DNA from: Escherichia coli
Lineage (GTDB): Bacteria > Pseudomonadota > Gammaproteobacteria > Enterobacterales > Enterobacteriaceae
Strand: one strand, 5' to 3'
DNA: 64,000 nt
NCBI RefSeq assembly: GCF_003019035.1
Contig: NZ_CP027447.1
Under the pieces are notes generated by a model. It made no database searches, was not told where the DNA came from, and saw only the letters and a list, made by a program, of their open reading frames with translations. Position 1 is the first letter of the stretch. Each line of letters starts with the position of its first letter. The translations under genes and the position numbers were made by a program. Positions 45,552 through 64,000 of this stretch are shown here, one piece after another.

Positions 45552-46460
45552 ATGAAAACGGGATCTGAGTTTCATGTCGGTATCGTTGGCTTAGGGTCAA
45601 TGGGAATGGGAGCAGCACTGTCATGTGTCCGCGCAGGTCTTTCTACCTGGGGCGCAGACCTGAACAGCAATGCCTGCGCTACGTTGAAAGAGGCAGGTGC
45701 TTGCGGGGTTTCTGATAACGCCGCGACGTTTGCCGAAAAACTGGACGCTCTGCTGGTGCTGGTGGTCAATGCGGCCCAGGTTAAACAGGTGCTGTTTGGT
45801 GAAACAGGCGTTACACAACATCTGAAACCCGGTACGGCAGTAATGGTTTCTTCCACTATCGCTAGTGCTGATGCGCAAGAAATTGCTACCGCTCTGGCTG
45901 GATTCGATCTGGAAATGCTGGATGCGCCAGTTTCTGGTGGTGCAGTAAAAGCCGCTAACGGTGAAATGACTGTCATGGCCTCCGGTAGCGATATTGCCTT
46001 TGAACGACTGGCACCCGTGCTGGAAGCCGTTGCCGGAAAAGTTTATCGCATAGGTGCAGAACCGGGACCAGGTTCGACCGTAAAAATTATTCACCAGTTG
46101 TTAGCGGGCGTACATATTGCTGCCGGAGCCGAAGCGATGGCACTTGCAGCCCGTGCGGGGATCCCGCTGGATGTGATGTATGACGTCGTGACCAATGCCG
46201 CCGGAAATTCCTGGATGTTCGAAAACCGGATGCGTCATGTGGTGGATGGCGATTACACCCCGCATTCAGCCGTCGATATTTTTGTTAAGGATCTTGGTCT
46301 GGTTGCCGATACAGCCAAAGCCCTGCACTTCCCGCTGCCATTGGCCTCAACAGCATTGAATATGTTCACCAGCGCCAGTAACGCGGGTTACGGGAAAGAA
46401 GACGATAGCGCAGTTATCAAGATTTTCTCTGGCATCACTCTACCGGGAGCGAAATCATGA
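45552..46460 (+). CDS. ygbJ: L-threonate dehydrogenase (3-hydroxyisobutyrate dehydrogenase family)
   Basis: Recognised sequence; NAD-binding GLGSMG. Confidence 0.9.
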   Translation: MKTGSEFHVGIVGLGSMGMGAALSCVRAGLSTWGADLNSNACATLKEAGACGVSDNAATFAEKLDALLVLVVNAAQVKQVLFGETGVTQHLKPGTAVMVSSTIASADAQEIATALAGFDLEMLDAPVSGGAVKAANGEMTVMASGSDIAFERLAPVLEAVAGKVYRIGAEPGPGSTVKIIHQLLAGVHIAAGAEAMALAARAGIPLDVMYDVVTNAAGNSWMFENRMRHVVDGDYTPHSAVDIFVKDLGLVADTAKALHFPLPLASTALNMFTSASNAGYGKEDDSAVIKIFSGITLPGAKS

Positions 46461-49223: not shown

Positions 49224-50588
49224 ATGTCCACAATTACATTGTTATGCATTGCGTTAACTGGCGTAATCATGCTGTTGCTGCTGGTCATCAAGGCAAAGGT
49301 ACAACCATTCGTTGCTCTGCTCCTCGTCAGCCTGTTAGTCGCACTTGCGGCGGGTATACCGGCGGGCGAAGTGGGTAAAGTGATGATCGCCGGGATGGGC
49401 GGTGTGCTTGGTTCCGTCACTATTATTATTGGTCTGGGCGCTATGCTGGGGCGTATGATCGAACACTCTGGTGGTGCAGAGTCACTGGCTAATTATTTCA
49501 GTCGCAAGTTAGGTGACAAACGAACTATCGCTGCACTGACTCTGGCAGCGTTCTTCCTCGGTATCCCCGTCTTCTTTGATGTCGGCTTTATTATTCTTGC
49601 GCCAATCATTTACGGTTTTGCCAAGGTTGCCAAAATATCGCCACTCAAATTTGGCCTGCCTGTCGCTGGGATCATGCTCACTGTTCATGTGGCGGTACCG
49701 CCGCATCCAGGCCCTGTCGCCGCAGCGGGGTTACTCCACGCAGACATCGGCTGGCTAACCATCATCGGTATTGCGATTTCTATTCCCGTAGGGATTGTTG
49801 GCTACTTTGCAGCGAAAATAATCAATAAGCGCCAATATGCAATGTCGGTGGAAGTACTGGAACAGATGCAACTGGCTCCGACCAGTGAGGAAGGCGCGAC
49901 AAAATTAAGCGATAAAATAAATCCACCGGGCGTCGCGCTGGTCACCTCGCTAATTGTTATTCCTATCGCGATTATCATGGCGGGTACGGTTTCCGCAACA
50001 CTGATGCCGCCTTCGCATCCCCTGCTTGGTACGCTACAGCTGATCGGCTCACCAATGGTAGCTCTAATGATTGCGCTGGTGCTGGCATTCTGGTTATTGG
50101 CTTTACGTCGCGGCTGGAGCTTACAACACACCAGCGACATTATGGGCTCAGCCCTTCCCACCGCGGCGGTAGTGATTTTGGTTACTGGTGCTGGAGGGGT
50201 ATTTGGCAAAGTGCTGGTGGAATCGGGCGTCGGCAAAGCCCTTGCCAACATGCTACAAATGATTGACCTGCCTCTGTTACCAGCCGCATTTATTATTTCA
50301 CTGGCGCTGCGTGCATCGCAGGGGTCAGCAACCGTAGCAATCCTGACAACCGGCGGGTTACTCTCAGAAGCGGTGATGGGATTGAATCCGATTCAGTGCG
50401 TATTGGTGACGCTGGCAGCCTGCTTTGGTGGGCTTGGCGCGTCACATATTAATGACTCAGGGTTCTGGATTGTGACCAAATATCTGGGGTTGTCGGTAGC
50501 AGACGGTCTGAAAACCTGGACAGTGTTAACGACCATTCTCGGTTTTACCGGATTCTTAATTACCTGGTGCGTATGGGCGGTAATTTGA
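49224..50588 (+). CDS. ygbN: GntP-family transporter
   Basis: Polytopic membrane protein; operon order. Confidence 0.85.
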   Translation: MSTITLLCIALTGVIMLLLLVIKAKVQPFVALLLVSLLVALAAGIPAGEVGKVMIAGMGGVLGSVTIIIGLGAMLGRMIEHSGGAESLANYFSRKLGDKRTIAALTLAAFFLGIPVFFDVGFIILAPIIYGFAKVAKISPLKFGLPVAGIMLTVHVAVPPHPGPVAAAGLLHADIGWLTIIGIAISIPVGIVGYFAAKIINKRQYAMSVEVLEQMQLAPTSEEGATKLSDKINPPGVALVTSLIVIPIAIIMAGTVSATLMPPSHPLLGTLQLIGSPMVALMIALVLAFWLLALRRGWSLQHTSDIMGSALPTAAVVILVTGAGGVFGKVLVESGVGKALANMLQMIDLPLLPAAFIISLALRASQGSATVAILTTGGLLSEAVMGLNPIQCVLVTLAACFGGLGASHINDSGFWIVTKYLGLSVADGLKTWTVLTTILGFTGFLITWCVWAVI

Positions 50589-50594
50589 CCTTAA

Positions 50595-50627
50595 TAAAAA
50601 GGTCCGATGGGCATCGGACCTTTTATT
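50595..50627. terminator. bidirectional terminator AAAAA-GGTCCGATG-GGC-CATCGGACC-TTTTATT
   Basis: A-tract, 8-9-bp stem, T-tract between convergent ygbN and ecdD-like gene. Confidence 0.7.
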
Positions 50628-50863
50628 TAGCGCTTACCTTCCGCCAGCAGCGGCGGGATGCTCGGCACCATCGGCGCGTCATCAATATCTTTCTGCGTCA
50701 TGCGGAACGCTTCGGGATAATGTTCGCGGCTGGTGCGGCGCAGCGGTTCGGTATCGCGCCAGGTATAGAGGCAATGCTGGCACTGGTAGACCGTCCAGAC
50801 ATCTTTTACCGGCGATTTCGCCATCACTTCAATCTGTTCATCAGCACAACGTGGACAAATCAT
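50627..50863 (-). CDS. small subunit of UbiD/UbiX-type aromatic acid decarboxylase (EcdD/YclD-like), 78 aa, CxxC...CxxC
   Basis: Two Cys pairs (CPRC, CQHC); position downstream of UbiD-like gene. Confidence 0.7.
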   Translation of the reverse strand: MICPRCADEQIEVMAKSPVKDVWTVYQCQHCLYTWRDTEPLRRTSREHYPEAFRMTQKDIDDAPMVPSIPPLLAEGKR

Positions 50864-50873
50864 CTTGTTCTCC

Positions 50874-52325
50874 TTATTGACGTGCGGCCAGCATAGCGGT
50901 CAGTTTTTCAGCCCAGGCTTTGGTTTCCGGTAAATCCACCACCGGCTGACTGTAGTGACCGCGGTTGTCCGGGGCGACAGGCGTGGTGGCGTCGATAATC
51001 AGCTTGTCGGTGATCCCCGCCGGGCTTGAGCCTGGGTCGAGTTCCAGCACGGACATATTCGGCAACTGCACCAAATCCCCTGCCGGGTTCACTTTCGAGG
51101 AGAGCGCCCACATCACCTGCGGCAGGTTGAACGGATCAACGTCTTCATCGACCATAATCACCATCTTCACATAGCCCAGACCGTGCGGCGTGGTCATCGC
51201 ACGGAGGCCCACCGCGCGGGCAAAGCCACCGTAGCGTTTTTTGGTGGAGATAATCGCCAGCAGGCCGTGGGTGTACATGGCGTTTACCGCCTGCACTTCC
51301 GGGAACTCGGCTTTCAGTTGCTGATACAGCGGCACGCAGGTGGCTGGCCCCATCAGGTAGTCGATTTCCGTCCACGGCATCCCGAGATAGAGCGATTCAA
51401 AAATGGGTTTGCTGCGATAAGAGACGTTATCGATGCGCACCACGGTCATGTTGCGCCCGCCGGAGTAGTGCCCGGTAAACTCACCGAACGGCCCTTCGAT
51501 TTCACGTTTACGGCTTTCGATGACACCTTCGAGGATCACTTCTGAACCCCACGGCACATCAAAACCAGTCAGCGGGGCGGTGGCGATCGGGTACGGGCTT
51601 TCACGCAGCGCGCCTGCCATTTCGTACTCGGACTGATCATATTTCAGCGGCGTGGCCCCCATCAGCGTGATGATCGGATCGTTACCGAGGGTGATCGCAA
51701 TCGGCAGATCTTCACCGCGCTCTTCCGCTTTATGCAGATGCAGGGCGATATCGTGCATCGGCACCGGTTGCAGGCCGAGCTTACGTTTGCCCTTCACTTC
51801 CATGCGGTAGATACCGACGTTCTGCTTGCCGAAGTTATCCGGATCAAGCGGATCGCGGGAAACCACGCACGCTTTGTCGAGATAGAAACCGCCATCGCCA
51901 TCGTTTAAACGAAACAGCGGCAGGATATCGAACAGGTTGATCTCGTCTCCATCGACGGTGTTCTGCGCCCAGGCTGGATTGGCTCGGCGTTCCGGGGCAA
52001 TCGGGAAGTTGTCCCAGCGGCGGATAAACTCATCGATCTGTTTTTTAACCGGGGTATTTGGCGGCAGGCCGAGGGAAATCGCGTGGTTCTGCCAGGAACC
52101 GATGGTGTTCATCGCCACGCGGGCATCGGTAAAGCCGCGAATATTATCAAACCACAGCGCTGGCGCGCCGTCGCCGATACGCCCGGTGGCGTTGGCTGCG
52201 GCTGCCAGATCCGGTTCTGCGTTCACCTCTTCGCTGATTTTCAGCAATTGCCCATGGTCGTCGAGCGCCCTACCAGGCCATCGGCGTAACCGGCACGGAT
52301 ACCGGCGAGCGTTTTCATACTGCAC
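50874..52325 (-). CDS. UbiD-family decarboxylase (EcdC/YclC-like); homology begins ~ALDDHGQ, N-terminal ~20 codons of the ORF derive from out-of-frame upstream sequence
   Basis: UbiD-like sequence through most of the ORF; N-terminus disrupted by the junction near 52270. Confidence 0.7.
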   Translation of the reverse strand: MQYENARRYPCRLRRWPGRALDDHGQLLKISEEVNAEPDLAAAANATGRIGDGAPALWFDNIRGFTDARVAMNTIGSWQNHAISLGLPPNTPVKKQIDEFIRRWDNFPIAPERRANPAWAQNTVDGDEINLFDILPLFRLNDGDGGFYLDKACVVSRDPLDPDNFGKQNVGIYRMEVKGKRKLGLQPVPMHDIALHLHKAEERGEDLPIAITLGNDPIITLMGATPLKYDQSEYEMAGALRESPYPIATAPLTGFDVPWGSEVILEGVIESRKREIEGPFGEFTGHYSGGRNMTVVRIDNVSYRSKPIFESLYLGMPWTEIDYLMGPATCVPLYQQLKAEFPEVQAVNAMYTHGLLAIISTKKRYGGFARAVGLRAMTTPHGLGYVKMVIMVDEDVDPFNLPQVMWALSSKVNPAGDLVQLPNMSVLELDPGSSPAGITDKLIIDATTPVAPDNRGHYSQPVVDLPETKAWAEKLTAMLAARQ

Positions 52326-52579
52326 GGAATAACGATCATGCCGTCGGTACGAAAGGAACCTGAGGAGATGGTCGCCGCCTGATCCGCCGAGTTATGGCTG
52401 AAGTCTGCGAGGGCAGCAACATCGCGAGCGCTGTAAGGCGTTTCCAGTTCAATGGTGGTTTTCGCCCACGTCGACATCACCAGATGAGTCTCGACATTCG
52501 GCATCTCCCGCAGCGCTTGCAGTAATGCCACACCAAGAGGCGCACCGGTAGCCCCTGTCATCCCGACGATCAGTTTCAT
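52241..52579 (-). pseudogene. truncated UbiX-like flavin prenyltransferase (EcdB/Pad1-like): 105 aa of ~190 retained, C-terminal half missing
   Basis: N-terminal UbiX homology up to GYADGLVGR then STTMGNC-stop; no UbiX C-terminal coding sequence in any frame downstream. Confidence 0.65.
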
Positions 52580-52725
52580 TGCTTACTCTCTTAATTGTTC
52601 GTATACGAACGTTATTATTAACATACTCCTTCATTTCCACAGCGGCAAGGATTGAAAAGTAACAACATCTTCTTCGTCACTGAAAAACCGCTATGATAGC
52701 GACAGAGAATTAGCCCGGAGTTTAC

Positions 52726-53133
52726 ATGGCGTTACGAAATAAAGCGTTCCATCAGTTACGACAGCTTTTTCAGCAGCATACGGCCCGCTGGCAGCACGAG
52801 TTACCTGACCTGACCAAACCACAGTACGCGGTGATGCGCGCCATTGCTGATAAGCCTGGTATCGAACAGGTGGCACTGATAGAAGCAGCAGTCAGCACCA
52901 AAGCAACGCTGGCAGAAATGTTGGCAAGAATGGAAAATCGTGGCTTAGTCAGACGTGAACATGACGCCGCTGATAAGCGGCGACGCTTTGTCTGGCTGAC
53001 TGCCGAAGGAGAAAAGGTACTTGCTGCGGCGATACCGATTGGCGACAGTGTGGATGAGGAATTTTTGGGGCGTTTGAGTGGAGAAGAGCAGGAGCTGTTT
53101 ATGCAGCTGGTGCGCAAGATGATGAGCAAATAG
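52726..53133 (+). CDS. MarR/SlyA-family transcriptional regulator, 135 aa
   Basis: MarR-like winged-helix region; divergent from the ecd-like cluster. Confidence 0.7.
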   Translation: MALRNKAFHQLRQLFQQHTARWQHELPDLTKPQYAVMRAIADKPGIEQVALIEAAVSTKATLAEMLARMENRGLVRREHDAADKRRRFVWLTAEGEKVLAAAIPIGDSVDEEFLGRLSGEEQELFMQLVRKMMSK

Positions 53134-53252
53134 GATGTTGATTGCCGGATGGGACGCTGACGTGTCTTATCCAGGCGACAAAACACACCGACTCCCAAAT
53201 AAAAGAAAAAGGCCAGCCTCGCTTGAGACTGGCCTTTCTGACAGATGCTTAC

Positions 53253-54245
53253 TTATTCGCGGAACAGCGCTTCGATATTCAGCCCCTGCGTTTGCAGGAT
53301 TTCGCGCAAACGGCGCAGGCCTTCAACCTGAATCTGGCGAACACGTTCACGGGTGAGGCCAATTTCACGACCTACATCTTCCAGTGTTGCCGCTTCGTAC
53401 CCCAGCAAACCGAATCGACGTGCCAGTACTTCACGCTGTTTGGCGTTCAGCTCGAACAGCCATTTGACGATGCTCTGCTTCATATCGTCATCTTGCGTGG
53501 TATCTTCCGGACCGTTCTCTTTTTCATCGGCCAGGATGTCCAGCAACGCTTTTTCGGAATCACCACCCAGCGGGGTGTCTACCGAGGTAATGCGCTCGTT
53601 AAGACGAAGCATACGGCTGACGTCATCAACTGGCTTATCCAGTTGCTCTGCGATCTCTTCCGCACTTGGTTCATGGTCCAGTTTATGGGACAACTCGCGT
53701 GCGGTTCGCAGGTAAACGTTCAGCTCCTTTACGATGTGAATCGGCAAACGAATAGTACGGGTTTGGTTCATAATCGCCCGTTCGATCGTCTGGCGAATCC
53801 ACCAGGTTGCGTATGTTGAGAAGCGGAAACCACGTTCCGGGTCAAACTTCTCTACCGCGCGGATCAGCCCCAGGTTGCCCTCTTCGATAAGATCCAGCAA
53901 AGCCAGACCACGATTGCCATAACGGCGGGCAATTTTTACCACCAGGCGCAAGTTACTCTCGATCATCCGGCGGCGAGAGGCAACATCTCCACGCAGTGCG
54001 CGACGCGCAAAATAAACTTCTTCTTCGGCCGTTAACAGTGGTGAATAACCAATCTCACCAAGGTAAAGCTGAGTCGCGTCCAGCACACGCTGTGTGGCTC
54101 CCTGCGATAACAGTTCCTCTTCGGCCAAATCGTTATCACTGGGTTCCTCTTCTACTAAGGCCTTTTCGTCAAAAACCTCAACTCCGTTCTCATCAAATTC
54201 CGCATCTTCATTTAAATCATGAACTTTCAGCGTATTCTGACTCAT
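53253..54245 (-). CDS. rpoS: RNA polymerase sigma factor RpoS (sigma-38), full length, Glu at codon 33
   Basis: Recognised sequence starting MSQNTLKV; ORF track extends 12 codons upstream. Confidence 0.95.
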
Positions 54246-54307
54246 AAGGTGGCTCCTACCCGTGATCCCTTGACGGAACATTCAAGCAAAAGCCTGGTTC
54301 CGCCGAT

Positions 54308-55447
54308 TTATCGCTGCGGCAAATAACGCAGCGGGTTTACGGATTTCCCCTTGTAACGAATTTCAAAATGCAAGCGTGTTGAACTGGTTCCGGTGCTACC
54401 CATGGTTGCTATTTTTTGCCCCGCCTTCACTTCTTGTTGTTCCCGGACCAGCATTGTGTCGTTATGGGCGTAGGCACTCAGGTAATCATCATTATGTTTG
54501 ATGATAATCAGATTACCGTAGCCGCGCAGCGCGTTACCGGCATAAACAACGCGGCCATCTGCAGTCGCGATAATTGCCTGTCCTTTGCTGCCTGCGATAT
54601 CAATCCCCTTGTTGCCCCCCTCAGAAGCGCCAAAGGTTTCGATCACTTTGCCCTCAGTCGGCCAGCGCCAGGTGGAGATAGGCGTACTGGTTGATGTACT
54701 GCTGACAGTCGGCTCGGTTGTGCTTGCTGTTGGTACCGTTACAGGCGCTGTGACCGTGGTCGCAGTTGGCTTGTTGTTCGGCAACATTTTGTTAGCACTC
54801 TGTTCACCCGAAGACTCAGAATACGTAATTGTCGGTTGCGACGCAACAGCAACGGTGGAATTTTGTGCAGGCTTGATCACAACTCCTTGCTCTGCTGCGT
54901 CGGCCTGGGTAATGGCATTTCCGCCAGTGATTGGCGTACCGGAAGCATTCCCCACCTGTAAGGTCTGACCGACGTTCAGCGCGTATGGTGCCTGAATATT
55001 GTTGCGCTGAGCAAGGTCACGGAAATCGTTGCCAGTAATCCAGGCGATATAGAAAAGTGTGTCGCCTTTTTTCACTGTATAGGTACTGCCGCTATAACTG
55101 CCTTTCGGAATGTTCCCATACTGACGGTTATAGACGATGCGTCCGTTTTCCATCTGTACCGGCTGCTGAGCTACTGGCTGCACCGGCTGGATTTGCGGTT
55201 GTTGAGTGGCCTGAATTTGTGGCTGCTGTACCGGCTGAATTTGCGGTTGCTGCGCTGTAGACGTCGTCCCCATTTTCGGCGGCGGCGTAATCAACATACC
55301 AGAATTGGTATTTGCAGGCGCATTGCCATTAACGGAGCTGACCGGGGCCGGTGGATTTGAAGTGTCAGAACAGCCTGCCAGCCATAGCGAAACCAGTGAC
55401 AAAGCCGCAATGCGGCGAACGGTGAATTTTGGGCTTCCCGCGCTCAT
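54308..55447 (-). CDS. nlpD: murein hydrolase activator lipoprotein NlpD (LysM + M23 domain)
   Basis: Lipobox LAGC, Gln/Pro-rich repeats, recognised sequence. Confidence 0.9.
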
Positions 55448-55586
55448 TTATCCCCCAGGAAAAATTGGTTAATAACCAGTGACATAATTACCGTGCAAGG
55501 CACCATACTGAACACTGGAAAAGATGTTCACGATACGCTGACCTGCGGCAAAATAACCAGGAAAAATCCAGGTATTTCCTCACGTT

Positions 55587-56948
<1,362 letters not shown>

Positions 56949-56968
<20 letters not shown>

Positions 56969-57998
56969 AATCACCTGTTGTGTTGATAAGTTCCCTGACA
57001 ACGCTGGTTGCAAAACTACCCGCCGGAAGCCAGAAACGGATTTCTACGGTGACGTCATCCCACCAGTTCCAGCTTAATTGTTGCGGATACAGCAGCATCG
57101 CTCTGCGCGCGGCTTCAACTTTTTCGCGCACCAGTAAGGCTTGTAATTCAGTTTCTGCGGCGACAGCTGCTTGTTCGAATGCCAGCGCTTCACGCTGAGT
57201 TCCCCATTCGCCACTGCCCGGCAATGCGGCGGTTATCATTAGCTCTTTATCGTTGACGCGACACTGTAATTCCGCCAGTTCTTCGGTGGTTGCGACAAAC
57301 CAGCTACCACGTCCGGCTAATTGTAGCGCATCGCCGTCAACAACTTGATTAACGTCTGCTTTTTTGAGGCGCTCAGCAACAATCTGATTAAACAACGCAC
57401 TGCGGGCTGCCGACAACCAAAAACTCCGTTTATTGCGATCGCGCACCGGAGTATTGGTTTGCGCCCAGCGCAGCGCGCCCTGCAAGTTGCTACCGCCAAT
57501 CCCAAAACGTTGGGCACCGAAGTAGTTCGGTACACCTTTTACGCAAATATCGATCAGACGTTGTTCAACGTCATCGCGATTGCTCACTTCGCGTAGTACC
57601 AGGGTAAAGGCGTTACCTTTCAGCGCCCCTAAACGCAGCTTGCGCTTGTGCCGCGCATACTCCAGCACCTGGCAGCCTTCCAGTTGAAAGGCGCTCAGAT
57701 CGGGCATCTCTTTGCCCGGCACGCGAGCGCATAACCACTGTTCCGTAACAGCATGTTTGTCTTTTTGCCCAGCGAAGCTGACTTCACGGGAATGAATTTT
57801 CAGGAATTTCGCCAGTGCATCCGCCACAAAACGGGTATTGCAGCCGTTTTTGAGGATTCTAACCAGAATATGCTCACCTTCACCATCAGGCTCAAAGCCC
57901 AAATCTTCCACCACCACAAAGTCTTCCGGATTGGCTTTCAGCAGCCCGGTGCCTTGCGGTTTACCGTGGAGGTAAGTGAGATTATCAAACTCAATCAT
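56949..57998 (-). CDS. truD: tRNA pseudouridine(13) synthase
   Basis: Recognised sequence and order. Confidence 0.9.
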
Positions 57999-58474
57999 TT
58001 TGTTGCCTTAATGAGTAGCGCCACCGCTTCACAGGCAATCCCTTCCCCACGTCCGGTAAATCCAAGTTTTTCCGTAGTAGTGGCTTTCACGTTAACATCA
58101 TCCATATGGCAGCCGAGATCTTCGGCAATAAACACGCGCATTTGTGGAATGTGCGGCAACATCTTCGGTGCCTGAGCGATGATAGTGACATCGACGTTGC
58201 CAAGGGTATAACCCTTCGCCTGAATACGACGCCAGGCTTCGCGTAGCAGCTCGCGGCTGTCGGCACCTTTAAATGCCGGATCGGTATCCGGGAACAGCTT
58301 GCCGATATCTCCCAGCGCCGCCGCGCCAAGCAATGCATCGGTCAACGCATGGAGCGCCACATCGCCATCAGAATGCGCCAGCAATCCTTTTTCGTAAGGA
58401 ATGCGTACGCCACCAATGATAATTGGGCCTTCACCGCCAAAGGCGTGTACGTCAAAACCGTGTCCAATTCGCAT
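57995..58474 (-). CDS. ispF: 2-C-methyl-D-erythritol 2,4-cyclodiphosphate synthase
   Basis: Recognised sequence. Confidence 0.9.
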
Positions 58475-59184
58475 TATGTATTCTCCTGATGGATGGTTCG
58501 GGTGAGGTAAAACTCGGCCAGTGCCAAATCTTCCGGGCGCGTGACTTTAATGTTATCCGCGCGGCCTTCGACCAACTGCGGATGAAATCCGCAATATTCC
58601 AGCGCCGAGGCTTCGTCGGTAATGGTAGCGCCTTCATTTAGAGCGCGCGTCAGGCAGTCATGTAACAGCTCACGAGGGAAAAATTGCGGCGTCAGCGCGT
58701 GCCATAAGCCGTTGCGATCAACGGTATGAGCAATGGCATTTTTGCCCGGTTCGGCACGTTTCATCGTATCGCGCACTGGTGCGGCGAGGATCCCCCCCGT
58801 GCGGCTGGTTTCGCTCAACGCCAACAGGCGCGCGAGGTCATCCTGATGCAGACAAGGACGAGCGGCGTCATGCACCAATACCCACTGCGCGTCGCCAGCG
58901 GCTTTCAGACCTGCCAGCACGGAATCGGCACGCTCTTCACCACCATCAACAACCGTGATTTGTGGATGATTCGCCAGAGGAAGTTGTGCAAAACGGCTAT
59001 CGCCAGGACTTATGGCAATGACGACATGTTTCACCCGGGGATGCGCCAGCAGCGCATGCACCGAGTGTTCAAGAATGGTTTGATTACCGATTGAGAGATA
59101 TTGCTTAGGACATTCCGTTTGCATTCGACGGCCAAATCCGGCCGCCGGAACCACGGCGCAAACATCCAAATGAGTGGTTGCCAT
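58474..59184 (-). CDS. ispD: 2-C-methyl-D-erythritol 4-phosphate cytidylyltransferase
   Basis: Recognised sequence. Confidence 0.9.
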
Positions 59185-59202
59185 GTTAATTCCTGGGCTG
59201 AT

Positions 59203-59514
59203 TTATCGATTGTTTTGCCCCGCAGACTGTGCGCGCTTCGACGCGTCAGGCACCAGACGATAAAAAGTTTCGCCCGGCCTGGTCATGCTGAGTTCATTAC
59301 GCGCACGCTCTTCGAGCGCCTCCTGGCCGCCATTGAGATCGTCAATTTCGGCAAAAAGTTGATCGTTTCGCGCTTTAAGTTTCGCGTTTGTAGCTTGCTG
59401 TGCCGCCACATCATCATTGACGCGGGTATAGTCATGTATACCGTTCTTACCGAACCACAGCGAATACTGTAGCCAGACCAGAATAGCCAGCAACAGCAGC
59501 GTTAGTTTACCCAT
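59203..59514 (-). CDS. ftsB: cell division protein FtsB
   Basis: Recognised sequence; TM plus coiled coil. Confidence 0.9.
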
Positions 59515-59707
59515 CCTGCCCCCTGAAAAACGGCATCATCATCCCATGCATCCGAAGACGACTCTACATCCTCTGTTGGGGATACCGCGACAACGCGGGC
59601 AAATGTACCACATTTGTCCATTGTTACGTATACCCAGGGCGTGCAGAACATAATCTCATTATTAGTTACGGTTTGAATTATGAACAGAGGAGACAAGAAA
59701 GTACAAA

Positions 59708-60031
59708 TTAGCCCAGTAGCCACATAAACAGTGCGCCAAACATAATGCCTACTGTCACCAGGGTGAAAACAATACTGTAGCGTAGCTTTCCGTCCATCAA
59801 TGAATGCAGCGCAATCCCCACCACTACCGCGACAGGCATCAGTGCCAGAAAGAAAGGCCAGGTGTAGATAAAGAAGAACAGCGTGTTAGAGCCATAAATC
59901 AACATCGGCATCGCCAGCGCAAATAACCATGAGATAAAACCGACCACGGCACCAGGCAGTGACCATGTGGTTTCTTCATCCTCAGTAAGGCTGTCGTTAT
60001 TTGTTAGTGTAATGTTATGGCTATTACGCAT
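59708..60031 (-). CDS. ygbE: inner membrane protein YgbE
   Basis: Hydrophobic small protein; position. Confidence 0.8.
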   Translation of the reverse strand: MRNSHNITLTNNDSLTEDEETTWSLPGAVVGFISWLFALAMPMLIYGSNTLFFFIYTWPFFLALMPVAVVVGIALHSLMDGKLRYSIVFTLVTVGIMFGALFMWLLG

Positions 60032-60080
60032 ATTTGATCCTGTTACTTTGACGAACCGGGCATGGAAACCCGGTGGTGTC

Positions 60081-60686
60081 TCAGGATCTGATAATATCGT
60101 TCTGTCTCAACAGATCTAATAATTGCTGTACCAAATTTGTTACTAATTGTTCACCATTGAGATGAATTTCTGCCGATTCAGGCGCTTCGTAAACGGAATC
60201 TATTCCCGTAAAGTTGCGCAGTTCACCGGCACGCGCTTTCTTATATAAGCCTTTTGGATCGCGGGCTTCGCAAATCGCCAGCGGTGTATCGACAAACACT
60301 TCGATAAAGCGCCCTTCTCCTACGCGTTCGCGAACCATCTGGCGTTCGGCGCGGTGTGGCGAGATAAATGCGGTCAGCACCACCAGTCCGGCTTCAACCA
60401 TCAAATTCGCCACTTCACCGACGCGACGGATATTTTCTTTACGATCGGCATCGCTAAAACCGAGATCGCTGCATAATCCGTGGCGAACATTGTCGCCATC
60501 CAGCAGATACGTACTGACGCCAAGTTTATGTAACGCCTCCTCCAGCGCCCCCGCGACGGTTGATTTACCGGAACCAGAGAGGCCGGTAAACCACAGCACA
60601 ACACCACGATGACCGTGGTGCTGTTCGCGTTGTTGCGGAGTTACTGGGTGGCTATGCCAGACGACGTTTTCGTCATGCAGCGCCAT
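60081..60686 (-). CDS. cysC: adenylylsulfate kinase
   Basis: Recognised sequence; Walker [10 protein letters not shown]. Confidence 0.9.
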
Positions 60687-62113
60687 TATTTATCTCCCAG
60701 TAAATCGCGCGCACCCCAATGCGGGAAATGGCGGCGAACCAGGGCATTCAATTCCAGTTCGAATGCACTGAATTGAGATGGCGCAGCAGTTGCCTGGCTA
60801 ACTGGCTCGTGCACCATACCGGCACCTACGGTCACATTGCTCAGGCGATCGATAAAAATCAGCCCACCGGTCACCGGATTTTGCTGATAACGATCTAACA
60901 CCAGTGGCTCGTCAAAAGTGAGATCCACCAGGCCGATGCCGTTCAGCGGCAGGTTTTCAACTTCGCGTTGGGTAAGGTTATTGATATCAACCTGATAACG
61001 AATGCCATCAACACGAGCACGCGTCTTCTTACCGGCAATTTTGATGTCGTAACTCTGGCCCGGGGAAAGCGGCTGTTCCGCCATCCATACCACATCCACC
61101 GACGCGCTCTGCACAGCCGGTAACGCTTCGTCTGCCGCCAGCAGCAGATCGCCACGGCTGATGTCGATTTCATCCGTCAGCACCAGGGTGATCGCTTCTC
61201 CGGCAAAGGCTTCTTCGCGATCACCATCAAAAGTCACGATCCGCGCGACGTTTGATTCCACACCAGAGGGCAGCACTTTTACACGTTGCCCGACTTCCAC
61301 GCGACCGGATGCCAGCGTTCCGGCGTAGCCACGAAAATCGAGATTCGGACGGTTAACGTACTGCACCGGGAAGCGCATTGGCTGAGCATCCACCACTCGC
61401 TGGATCTCCACGGTTTCCAGCACTTCGAGCAGTGTCGGACCGCTGTACCACGGCATACTTTCACTTTGCGAAGCCACGTTGTCGCCTTCCAGTGCGGAGA
61501 GCGGCACAAAGCGGATATCCAGATTACCCGGCAGCTGCCCGGCAAAAGTCAGATAATCTTCACGAATACGGGTGAACGTCTCTTCACTGTAATCCACCAG
61601 ATCCATTTTGTTGATCGCCACGACCAGATGTTTGATCCCCAACAGTGTGGAGATAAAACTGTGACGACGGGTTTGATCGAGCACGCCTTTACGGGCATCG
61701 ATCAGTAAGATCGCCAGTTCACATGTCGATGCGCCAGTCGCCATATTGCGGGTGTACTGCTCGTGCCCCGGGGTGTCGGCGATAATAAATTTACGCTTCT
61801 CGGTAGAGAAATAGCGGTAGGCCACATCAATAGTGATGCCCTGTTCGCGCTCAGCTTGCAGGCCGTCCACCAGCAGTGCCAGATCCAGCTTTTCGCCCTG
61901 GGTGCCGTGACGCTTACTGTCGTTATGCAGCGATGAGAGCTGATCTTCGTAGATTTGGCGGGTATCGTGTAGCAGGCGACCAATCAGGGTACTTTTGCCG
62001 TCATCGACGCTACCACAGGTCAGAAAACGCAGCAGGCTTTTATGTTGTTGCGCAATCATCCAGGCTTCGACGCCGCCTTCATTGGCGATTTGTTGTGCAA
62101 GTGCGGTGTTCAT
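60686..62113 (-). CDS. cysN: sulfate adenylyltransferase subunit 1 (GTPase)
   Basis: Recognised sequence; GTPase motifs. Confidence 0.9.
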
Positions 62114-62114
62114 C

Positions 62115-63023
62115 TTAAAAATACCCCTGACGTTTTTTCAGCTCCATAGACCCCGCCTGGTCGCGGTCAATCACGCGGCCCTGACGTTCACTGGTGGTGG
62201 AAACCAGCATCTCTTCGATGATCTCCGGCAGTGTTTGTGCATTTGACTCCACCGCACCGGTCAGCGGCCAGCAGCCCAGCGTACGGAAACGCACCATCCG
62301 TTTTTTAATCACTTCGCCCGGTTGCAGGTCGATACGGTTGTCATCAATCATCATCAACATACCGTCGCGTTCCAGAACCGGACGTTCCGCAGCGAGATAC
62401 AGCGGCACAATGTCGATATTTTCCAGCCAGATGTATTGCCAGATATCCTGCTCGGTCCAGTTAGAGAGCGGGAAGACGCGGATGCTTTCGCCTTTGTTAA
62501 TTTGCCCGTTGTAGTTGTGCCACAGCTCCGGGCGCTGATTTTTCGGATCCCAGCGATGGAAGCGGTCACGGAAAGAGTAGATTCGCTCTTTAGCGCGGGA
62601 TTTCTCTTCGTCACGACGTGCGCCACCGAAGGCGGCATCAAAACCGTATTTGTTCAGCGCCTGTTTCAGGCCTTCAGTTTTCATAATATCGGTATGTTTC
62701 GCGCTGCCGTGTACGAATGGATTAATCCCCATCGCCACGCCTTCCGGGTTTTTATGCACCAGCAGCTCGCAGCCGTAGGCTTTCGCCGTACGATCGCGGA
62801 ACTCATACATCTCGCGGAATTTCCAGCCGGTATCGACATGCAGCAACGGGAAAGGCAGCGTACCTGGATAAAACGCCTTGCGCGCCAGATGCAGCATGAC
62901 GCTGGAATCTTTACCGATAGAGTAGAGCATCACCGGATTTGAGAATTCTGCAGCCACCTCGCGAATAATGTGGATGCTTTCCGCCTCCAGTTGCCGCAGG
63001 TGAGTAAGTCGTTTTTGATCCAT
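62115..63023 (-). CDS. cysD: sulfate adenylyltransferase subunit 2
   Basis: Recognised sequence. Confidence 0.9.
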
Positions 63024-63275
63024 AACCGTTCCTTTGCAATACCGCTATTTTCTTGCCATCAGATGTTTCGACTATAGGGAGCGCAGGAGAACGAATGAAA
63101 TTACCAATTAGAATGAGTAGTTCCTTAACGGAATAACGATTTGGCAAAGCTAATATCAAAAAGTGCTTAAGGCACCGGATTTCGGGCGTTTAGGAAGATT
63201 TGAAATTGTTTTAGCGCATCGGCAGTTTCATACTATGGCGGTAAAAAAAATTTGCATGGTATTTAAGGACTCACT

Positions 63276-64000
63276 ATGTTTTCCGCATTGCGCCACCGTA
63301 CCGCTGCCCTGGCGCTCGGCGTATGCTTTATTCTCCCCGTACACGCCTCGTCACCTAAACCTGGCGATTTTGCTAATACCCAGGCACGACATATTGCTAC
63401 TTTCTTTCCGGGACGCATGACCGGAACTCCAGCAGAAATGTTATCTGCCGATTATATTCGCCAACAGTTTCAGCAAATGGGTTATCGCAGTGATATTCGG
63501 ACATTTAATAGTCGGTATATTTATACCGCCCGCGATAATCGCAAGAGCTGGCATAACGTGACGGGAAGTACGGTGATTGCCGCTCATGAAGGCAAAGCGC
63601 CGCAGCAGATCATCATTATGGCGCATCTGGATACTTACGCCCCGCTGAGCGATGCTGACGCCGATGCCAATCTCGGCGGGCTGACGTTACAAGGAATGGA
63701 TGATAACGCCGCAGGTTTAGGTGTCATGCTGGAATTGGCAGAACGCCTGAAAAATACGCCTACCGAGTATGGTATTCGATTTGTGGCGACCAGCGGCGAA
63801 GAGGAAGGGAAATTAGGCGCTGAGAATTTACTCAAGCGGATGAGTGACTCCGAAAAGAAAAATACACTGCTGGTGATTAATCTCGATAACTTAATTGTTG
63901 GCGATAAATTGTATTTCAACAGCGGTGTAAAAACCCCTGAAGCAGTAAGGAAATTAACGCGCGACAGGGCGCTGGCAATTGCGCGTAGTCATGGAATTGC
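63276..64000 (+). CDS. iap: alkaline phosphatase isozyme conversion aminopeptidase, 5' part (runs off window end)
   Basis: ATG 63276 then signal peptide; open to end of window; recognised sequence and position divergent from cysD. Confidence 0.8.
   Translation, partial: MFSALRHRTAALALGVCFILPVHASSPKPGDFANTQARHIATFFPGRMTGTPAEMLSADYIRQQFQQMGYRSDIRTFNSRYIYTARDNRKSWHNVTGSTVIAAHEGKAPQQIIIMAHLDTYAPLSDADADANLGGLTLQGMDDNAAGLGVMLELAERLKNTPTEYGIRFVATSGEEEGKLGAENLLKRMSDSEKKNTLLVINLDNLIVGDKLYFNSGVKTPEAVRKLTRDRALAIARSHGI

Follow-up and report, generated by a model that had tools for sequence, protein, structure and literature searches.

The window analysed here, a 64,000-nucleotide stretch of an Escherichia coli chromosome, lies, at the locus studied, in the variable mutS-rpoS region. 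Comparing its open reading frame (ORF) map with the annotated genomes SCU-172 and SCU-301, we observe that hosA, a gene of the MarR family, and ecdB-ecdC-ecdD are located between rpoS and ygbN (Table 1). The minus strand carries nlpD, rpoS, a truncated UbiX-like ORF, a UbiD-like ORF, and a 78-aa ORF, and the MarR-type regulator is divergent from the B-C-D genes, which is the arrangement of hosA-ecdBCD in the pattern IV mutS-rpoS region. This "pattern IV" form of the E. coli o454(ygbN)-nlpD region has been described previously (PMC4209514). The annotation of both SCU-172 and SCU-301 names the products of the three genes [quoted passage not shown] and that of the hosA-like gene a MarR family regulator (WP_001208067.1). 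The 78-aa ORF encodes an intact small subunit D, and the Pfam family EcdD_BsdD_detox is recorded for the identical ecdD gene in related loci. From position 52270 to 64000, including hosA, there are 0 mismatches to SCU-301. The region between hosA and ecdB is unchanged as well; the role in regulation that we assign to it follows published work, according to which HosA represses the operon and 4-hydroxybenzoate (4-HBA) induces it (bioRxiv 10.1101/2024.04.24.590444).

In the annotated relatives, intact ecdB and ecdC have 197 and 475 codons, respectively, and overlap as TAATG in different frames, with the native ecdC ribosome-binding site (RBS), AGGAG, 8 nt 5' of its ATG. EcdB is a flavin prenyltransferase of the UbiX/Pad1 type, the maker of the prFMN cofactor. 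The intact protein of 197 aa is near-identical, end to end, to that of PDB entry 1SBZ (the structure of O157:H7 Pad1, also 197 aa; E = 9e-125), which identifies the remnant in the window as an ortholog of E. coli EcdB/Pad1; structure-sequence comparison also relates it to characterised UbiX flavin prenyltransferases.

Table 1 Features of the hosA-ecdBCD locus and its neighbours in the window.
Feature	Positions	Strand	Basis
ygbN	49224-50588	+	ORF map
ecdD, small subunit D, 78 aa, intact	50627-50863	-	WP_000562982.1 in SCU-172 and SCU-301; DNA identical to SCU-301
ecdC remnant, native codons 12-475 and stop, UbiD-like decarboxylase subunit C	50874-52268	-	Alignments; rest of gene 100% identical to SCU-301
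Out-of-frame EcdB tail, seven foreign codons (STTMGNC) and TGA stop, from ecdC DNA in the wrong frame	52241-52264	-	ORF translation and alignment with the intact locus
TTG, native Leu19 of EcdC, start of 457-aa EcdC' chosen by gene callers	52245-52247	-	Logan and NCBI gene calls
Deletion junction, single kept copy of the 5-bp direct repeat GGCGC	52265-52269	-	SCU-172 and SCU-301 alignments
ecdB remnant, native codons 1-105 of a UbiX/Pad1-like flavin prenyltransferase	52265-52579	-	First 315 nt identical to SCU-172/SCU-301 ecdB
GTG opening the 483-aa ORF, within ecdB	52323-52325	-	ORF list and sequence
hosA-ecdB intergenic region, unchanged; promoter and operator expected here	52580-52725	-	100% identity to SCU-172 and SCU-301
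hosA-like MarR-family repressor gene, 135 aa, intact, divergent from the decarboxylase operon	52726-53133	+	Pfam MarR, E = 5.8e-12
rpoS	53253-54245	-	ORF map

Beside the locus, positions 1-25694 of the window (boundary 25694/25695) are absent from SCU-301 and not collinear with it. They match, at ~97%, structural modules of Mu-like prophages in other E. coli genomes (DUF935 portal, terminase, tail sheath, tape measure, late control D). The phage side ends in ...TTTATCGCGCGGCGCATCA, with a terminal CA as at the right end of Mu, and the host side continues within the hypothetical CDS HHJ43_RS05785, downstream of hycI and between hycI and ascB. The window's strain thus has a transposable-phage insertion at this site, and positions 1-25694 represent the right-hand portion of this Mu-like prophage.

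The ecdB-ecdC junction

The truncated UbiX-like ORF (52241-52579, minus strand) encodes 112 aa ending in ...GYADGLVGR-STTMGNC-stop, and the same bases encode the UbiD-like region in the adjacent frame; on both points the ORF translations agree with a sequence-only reading of this DNA. The 112-aa product covers only profile positions 1-89 of 162 of the Pfam Flavoprotein family (PF02441) and does not amount to a full-length Flavoprotein fold (~190-200 residues).

We used window positions 51900-52700 (801 bases) as a megablast query against 5426 complete E. coli genomes. In the top matches, the 801-base query covers 1116-1117 bases in two pieces. Alignment of these 801 bases with SCU-172 shows one gap of exactly 315 bases, with the remainder 100% identical and with no foreign bases, IS element, or recombinase scar at the junction. 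The nearest complete genome, SCU-301, when compared with window positions 31729-64000 (32.3 kb), differs by the 315-bp deletion and one SNP (45813).

The sequence-only reading had proposed a deletion of ~0.3 kb that left ~105 of ~190 UbiX residues and removed ~10 codons of the UbiD-like gene. Alignment with intact ecdB-ecdC bears this out and refines it to exactly 315 bp, 105 of the 197 EcdB residues kept, and 11 EcdC codons missing. The out-of-frame junction had been placed inside GGGCGCTC, and we locate it in the GGCGC within that sequence. The absence of UbiX C-terminal coding sequence from every frame also holds, as a tblastn search of the window with the C-terminal half of EcdB returned chance matches only (E > 4). 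The deleted 315-bp DNA itself was not found elsewhere in the 64-kb window (blastn, chance matches only, E > 0.05).

In intact genomes, GGCGC flanks the 315-bp segment at both ends, one copy at EcdB codons 104-105 and the other at EcdC codons 11-13, and with an imperfect extension the two ends match at 9 of 11 positions. According to the SCU-172 and SCU-301 alignments, the intact sequence around the left endpoint reads ...CTGGTAG and then, across the endpoint, GGCGCGCGGCGG, while around the right endpoint TTTTTACA, also written CAGCTTTTTACA, is followed by GGCGCTCGACGA. Lost in the deletion are EcdB codons 106-197 with the stop codon, the AGGAG RBS of ecdC, and EcdC codons 1-11 (MAFDDLRSFLQ). 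The deletion length is divisible by three, but since the native reading frames of ecdB and ecdC differ, the fusion is still out of frame.

A length that is a clean multiple of three might also suggest a deletion engineered in a laboratory strain. We see no FRT, loxP, restriction-site, or marker scar, the endpoints coincide with a natural 5-bp repeat and not with gene boundaries, and the product is a frame-shifted fusion instead of a designed in-frame knockout, all of which makes this origin extremely unlikely. Moreover, several NCBI assemblies of the surveillance type are among the carriers described below, and these differ by a SNP.

Deletions by slippage or illegitimate recombination classically leave a single copy of a short sequence that both ends had shared, with no filler DNA. 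The junction studied here has these features, with GGCGC at both parental ends, one copy left, and no filler DNA. We propose that the deletion arose by slippage during replication, or by RecA-independent illegitimate recombination, between the two GGCGC copies, one of which would have been kept. Among 200,000 random deletions of 50-1000 bp simulated within the intact hosA-ecdD interval, only 0.6% had a junction homology of at least 5 bp (P about 0.006). A repeat search of the intact interval found no longer repeats and no convincing hairpin joining the endpoints, only weak, unrelated direct and inverted repeats, which leaves the 5-bp GGCGC as the only remaining cause. Judging from the junction, slippage or illegitimate recombination between short repeats is the most likely origin of the deletion.

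Distribution of the junction among E. coli genomes

In the megablast search, the locus was present in 2382 of the 5426 complete E. coli genomes and absent from the other 3044 (56%). The 315-bp segment is found in one piece in 2381 of the 2382 locus-bearing genomes, across 90-100% identity; the one remaining genome has no match to the segment, and the junction seen in the window occurs in none of them. Likewise, a 38-mer centred on the junction (window positions 52249-52286) matches 0 of the 5426 complete genomes, whereas a positive control 38-mer located 30 bases away has matches in 2156.

The sequence-only reading had noted that intact homologues with the same short gene and overlap would make this the native arrangement. 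Such a native form, with the long form derived from it, has in its favour only that open reading frames are found on either side of the junction. We regard it as highly improbable, since the long form is present in 2381 of the 2382 locus-bearing genomes, the junction is shared by 0 of the 5426 complete genomes, and the long form corresponds to a full enzyme of 197 aa whose structure has been solved (1SBZ), whereas the short form halves the Flavoprotein domain and carries a frame-shifted tail. In addition, SCU-301, one SNP apart over 32.3 kb, keeps the intact locus, which identifies the deletion as the derived state. With only this SNP and the deletion between the two sequences over that distance, the deletion must be recent.

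Assembly error was the other caveat raised from the sequence, and we consider here any assembly or sequencing artefact by which a region of a single genome was collapsed or wrongly joined. The absence of the junction from all complete RefSeq E. coli genomes speaks for it, as a difference confined to one assembly would be suspect. Nevertheless, the identical junction with its flanks is found in at least five independent assemblies (Logan SRR27538830, SRR28454960, SRR27538930, and SRR28454721, and NCBI GCA_032174115.2), which excludes an assembly error. Each of these carrier contigs runs collinear with the window across the junction (0-1 mismatches in 12-21 kb). In the public assembly collection, 99 contigs, of which the longest measures 5,168,620 bp, encode exactly the 112-aa truncated protein, and 63 contigs encode the 457-aa EcdC'. 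As the region also has no long repeat that could collapse, the probability of an artefact is very small.

The recurrence of the junction in independent assemblies and of the truncated protein on 99 contigs establishes the deletion as a real clonal allele of an E. coli clone close to SCU-301, neither an assembly error nor the native arrangement. Between GCA_032174115.2 and the window there is one synonymous SNP, at position 50886, in a third codon position near the 3' end of ecdC. The carriers therefore represent a clone that has diversified slightly, and not the repeated sequencing of a single culture.

Besides the deletion, the sole point differences that we found are those at 45813 (relative to SCU-301) and 50886 (relative to the carrier GCA_032174115.2). 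The Logan contigs with the deletion (L002, L003, L008, L009) come from two tight SRA series (SRR275388xx-389xx and SRR284547xx-549xx) and have high contig numbers and lengths of 20-30 kb. The two series suggest repeated metagenome recovery of one strain from one or two studies, and if the runs are metagenomes of related samples, the 99 contigs may overstate the spread of the clone.

Two proteins that cluster with the truncated protein were considered as further alleles and rejected. The first (P0003, 247 aa, from an ENA metagenome contig of 1092 bp) consists of approximately the first 100 EcdB residues followed by an unrelated membrane-protein-like sequence, and its contig is most likely a chimeric metagenome product. 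The second (P0002) corresponds to the unrelated part of P0003 alone.

Predicted consequences for the decarboxylase operon

With 47% of the protein gone, we infer that EcdB has lost its prenyltransferase activity and is non-functional, since half of a Rossmann-type flavoprotein would be unable to make prFMN.

The ecdC remnant lacks its ATG, its AGGAG RBS, and residues 1-11; the native start codon, RBS, and N-terminus all lie inside the deleted 315 bp, so the gene is not complete. The longest ORF in its frame (50874-52325, minus strand) runs for 483 aa from an upstream GTG, reads ...ALDDHGQLLKISEEV across the junction, and retains the three Pfam domains UbiD_N (PF20695, E = 1.2e-13), UbiD (PF01977, E = 9.7e-55), and UbiD_C (PF20696, E = 6.5e-32). 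Inspection of the sequence upstream of this GTG reveals no evident Shine-Dalgarno. The TTG at Leu19, which sits 4 nt upstream of the TGA ending truncated ecdB, is a possible weak re-initiation site for EcdC', and EcdC would at best be weakly translated from it. The product starting at this TTG would lack residues 1-18, including the conserved N-terminal DLRxFL helix. Intact EcdC aligns with VdcC (7AE4) over residues 3-471 (E = 2e-160), and its N-terminus, from residue 3 onwards, aligns with conserved residues of VdcC, 7PDA, and UbiD.

All UbiD enzymes require prFMN from UbiX, and VdcC also requires its small D subunit (PMC8379154). It is conceivable that the deletion kills EcdB only, and that EcdC', re-initiated at the TTG or the upstream GTG, joins EcdD and receives prFMN from the housekeeping UbiX, in which case some decarboxylase activity would be kept. 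The ecdC' frame remains open and shows no other change from the intact gene, neither ecdD nor hosA is damaged, the TTG lies close to the ecdB stop codon, and Pfam still recognises all three UbiD domains. NCBI annotation also treats the 457-aa product as a normal subunit C and not as a pseudogene. In principle, prFMN could come from the housekeeping UbiX, whose gene lies elsewhere in the E. coli genome, and loading of VdcC enzymes with prFMN by a heterologous UbiX works in vitro (PMC8379154). Nevertheless, we consider such residual activity unlikely. Both AGGAG and ATG are lost, a TTG lacking a Shine-Dalgarno is a poor start, and residues 1-18 would be missing, among them the DLRxFL segment, which is conserved among VdcC, 7PDA, and UbiD. 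Furthermore, co-expression of UbiX in E. coli yielded no holo-VdcCD, even with intact enzymes (PMC8379154).

These features suggest that the ecdBCD operon is now most probably a pseudogene, and that the clone has most probably lost the HosA-regulated decarboxylation of 4-hydroxybenzoate and vanillate. In the work of Lupa and colleagues, activity in an E. coli host reportedly depended on each of the three genes B, C, and D. Overall, we assign a probability of roughly 0.93 to the reading that a derived, lineage-specific deletion of 315 bp in hosA-ecdBCD, mediated by GGCGC, inactivates EcdB and most probably makes the operon a pseudogene. More speculatively, the clone could run a two-gene, UbiX-dependent EcdC'-EcdD decarboxylase under HosA control, or loss of the operon could have been selected, e.g. 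by avoiding the production of phenol from dietary 4-hydroxybenzoate; we hold these ideas to be slightly less probable still than the residual activity considered above.

In public annotation, the 457-aa EcdC' (P0004; window positions 50874-52247, minus strand) is named "non-oxidative hydroxyarylic acid decarboxylases subunit C" and given the TTG start, with the NCBI entries EOA2780230.1, EOC6810148.1, EOP0639983.1, and EOP0890222.1. Beside EcdC', no gene is recorded for truncated ecdB in GCA_032174115.2. The probable pseudogene status of the operon is thus inconsistently reflected in public records.

Relation to known systems

The genes, their regulator, the polymorphic mutS-rpoS setting, and the type of deletion are all already known, and the allele is a real but ordinary gene-loss mutation. 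Size differences have been noted in this region before, among them a deletion of ~300 bp in one ECOR strain of pattern III and an insertion of ~250 bp in a strain of pattern IV (PMC4209514). We found no description of this particular allele in the literature, and it is already present in public assemblies and annotations. Since 56% of complete E. coli genomes do without the operon, it is clearly dispensable, and we would expect it to decay in individual lineages such as this one. The finding has mostly annotation and strain-typing value. The junction 38-mer is a clean and specific marker for one clone closely related to SCU-301, which is predicted to be without an EcdB of its own and probably unable to decarboxylate 4-hydroxybenzoate or vanillate via EcdBCD. 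The allele also exposes the naming of the 457-aa EcdC as "subunit C" in spite of its deleted start codon, RBS, and partner gene.

Compared with the known hosA-ecdBCD locus, also called slyA/kpdR-kpdBCD or pad1-yclC-yclD, the window has the same position, gene order, and orientation, and shares 96-100% DNA identity with the locus of 2380 complete genomes, but lacks the 315 bp across the ecdB-ecdC boundary. At the protein level, residues 1-105 are almost identical to those of E. coli O157:H7 Pad1/EcdB (1SBZ), whereas residues 106-197 are absent and replaced by STTMGNC. As in VdcC/VdcD of Sedimentibacter hydroxybenzoicus (7AE4/7AE5/7AE7), a vanillate/4-hydroxybenzoate decarboxylase, a gene for the small D subunit follows that of subunit C; in contrast to VdcC and the wider UbiD family, the subunit C gene of the window has no start codon, RBS, first 11 residues, or DLRxFL segment.

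The deletion itself resembles those of the E. coli lacI gene, the classic case of spontaneous deletions between short direct repeats. As in such deletions, a short exact repeat is present at both parental ends, one copy is kept, there is no insert, and the segment lost is a few hundred bp long, although the repeat of only 5 bp lies at the short end of what is typical for deletions of this type.
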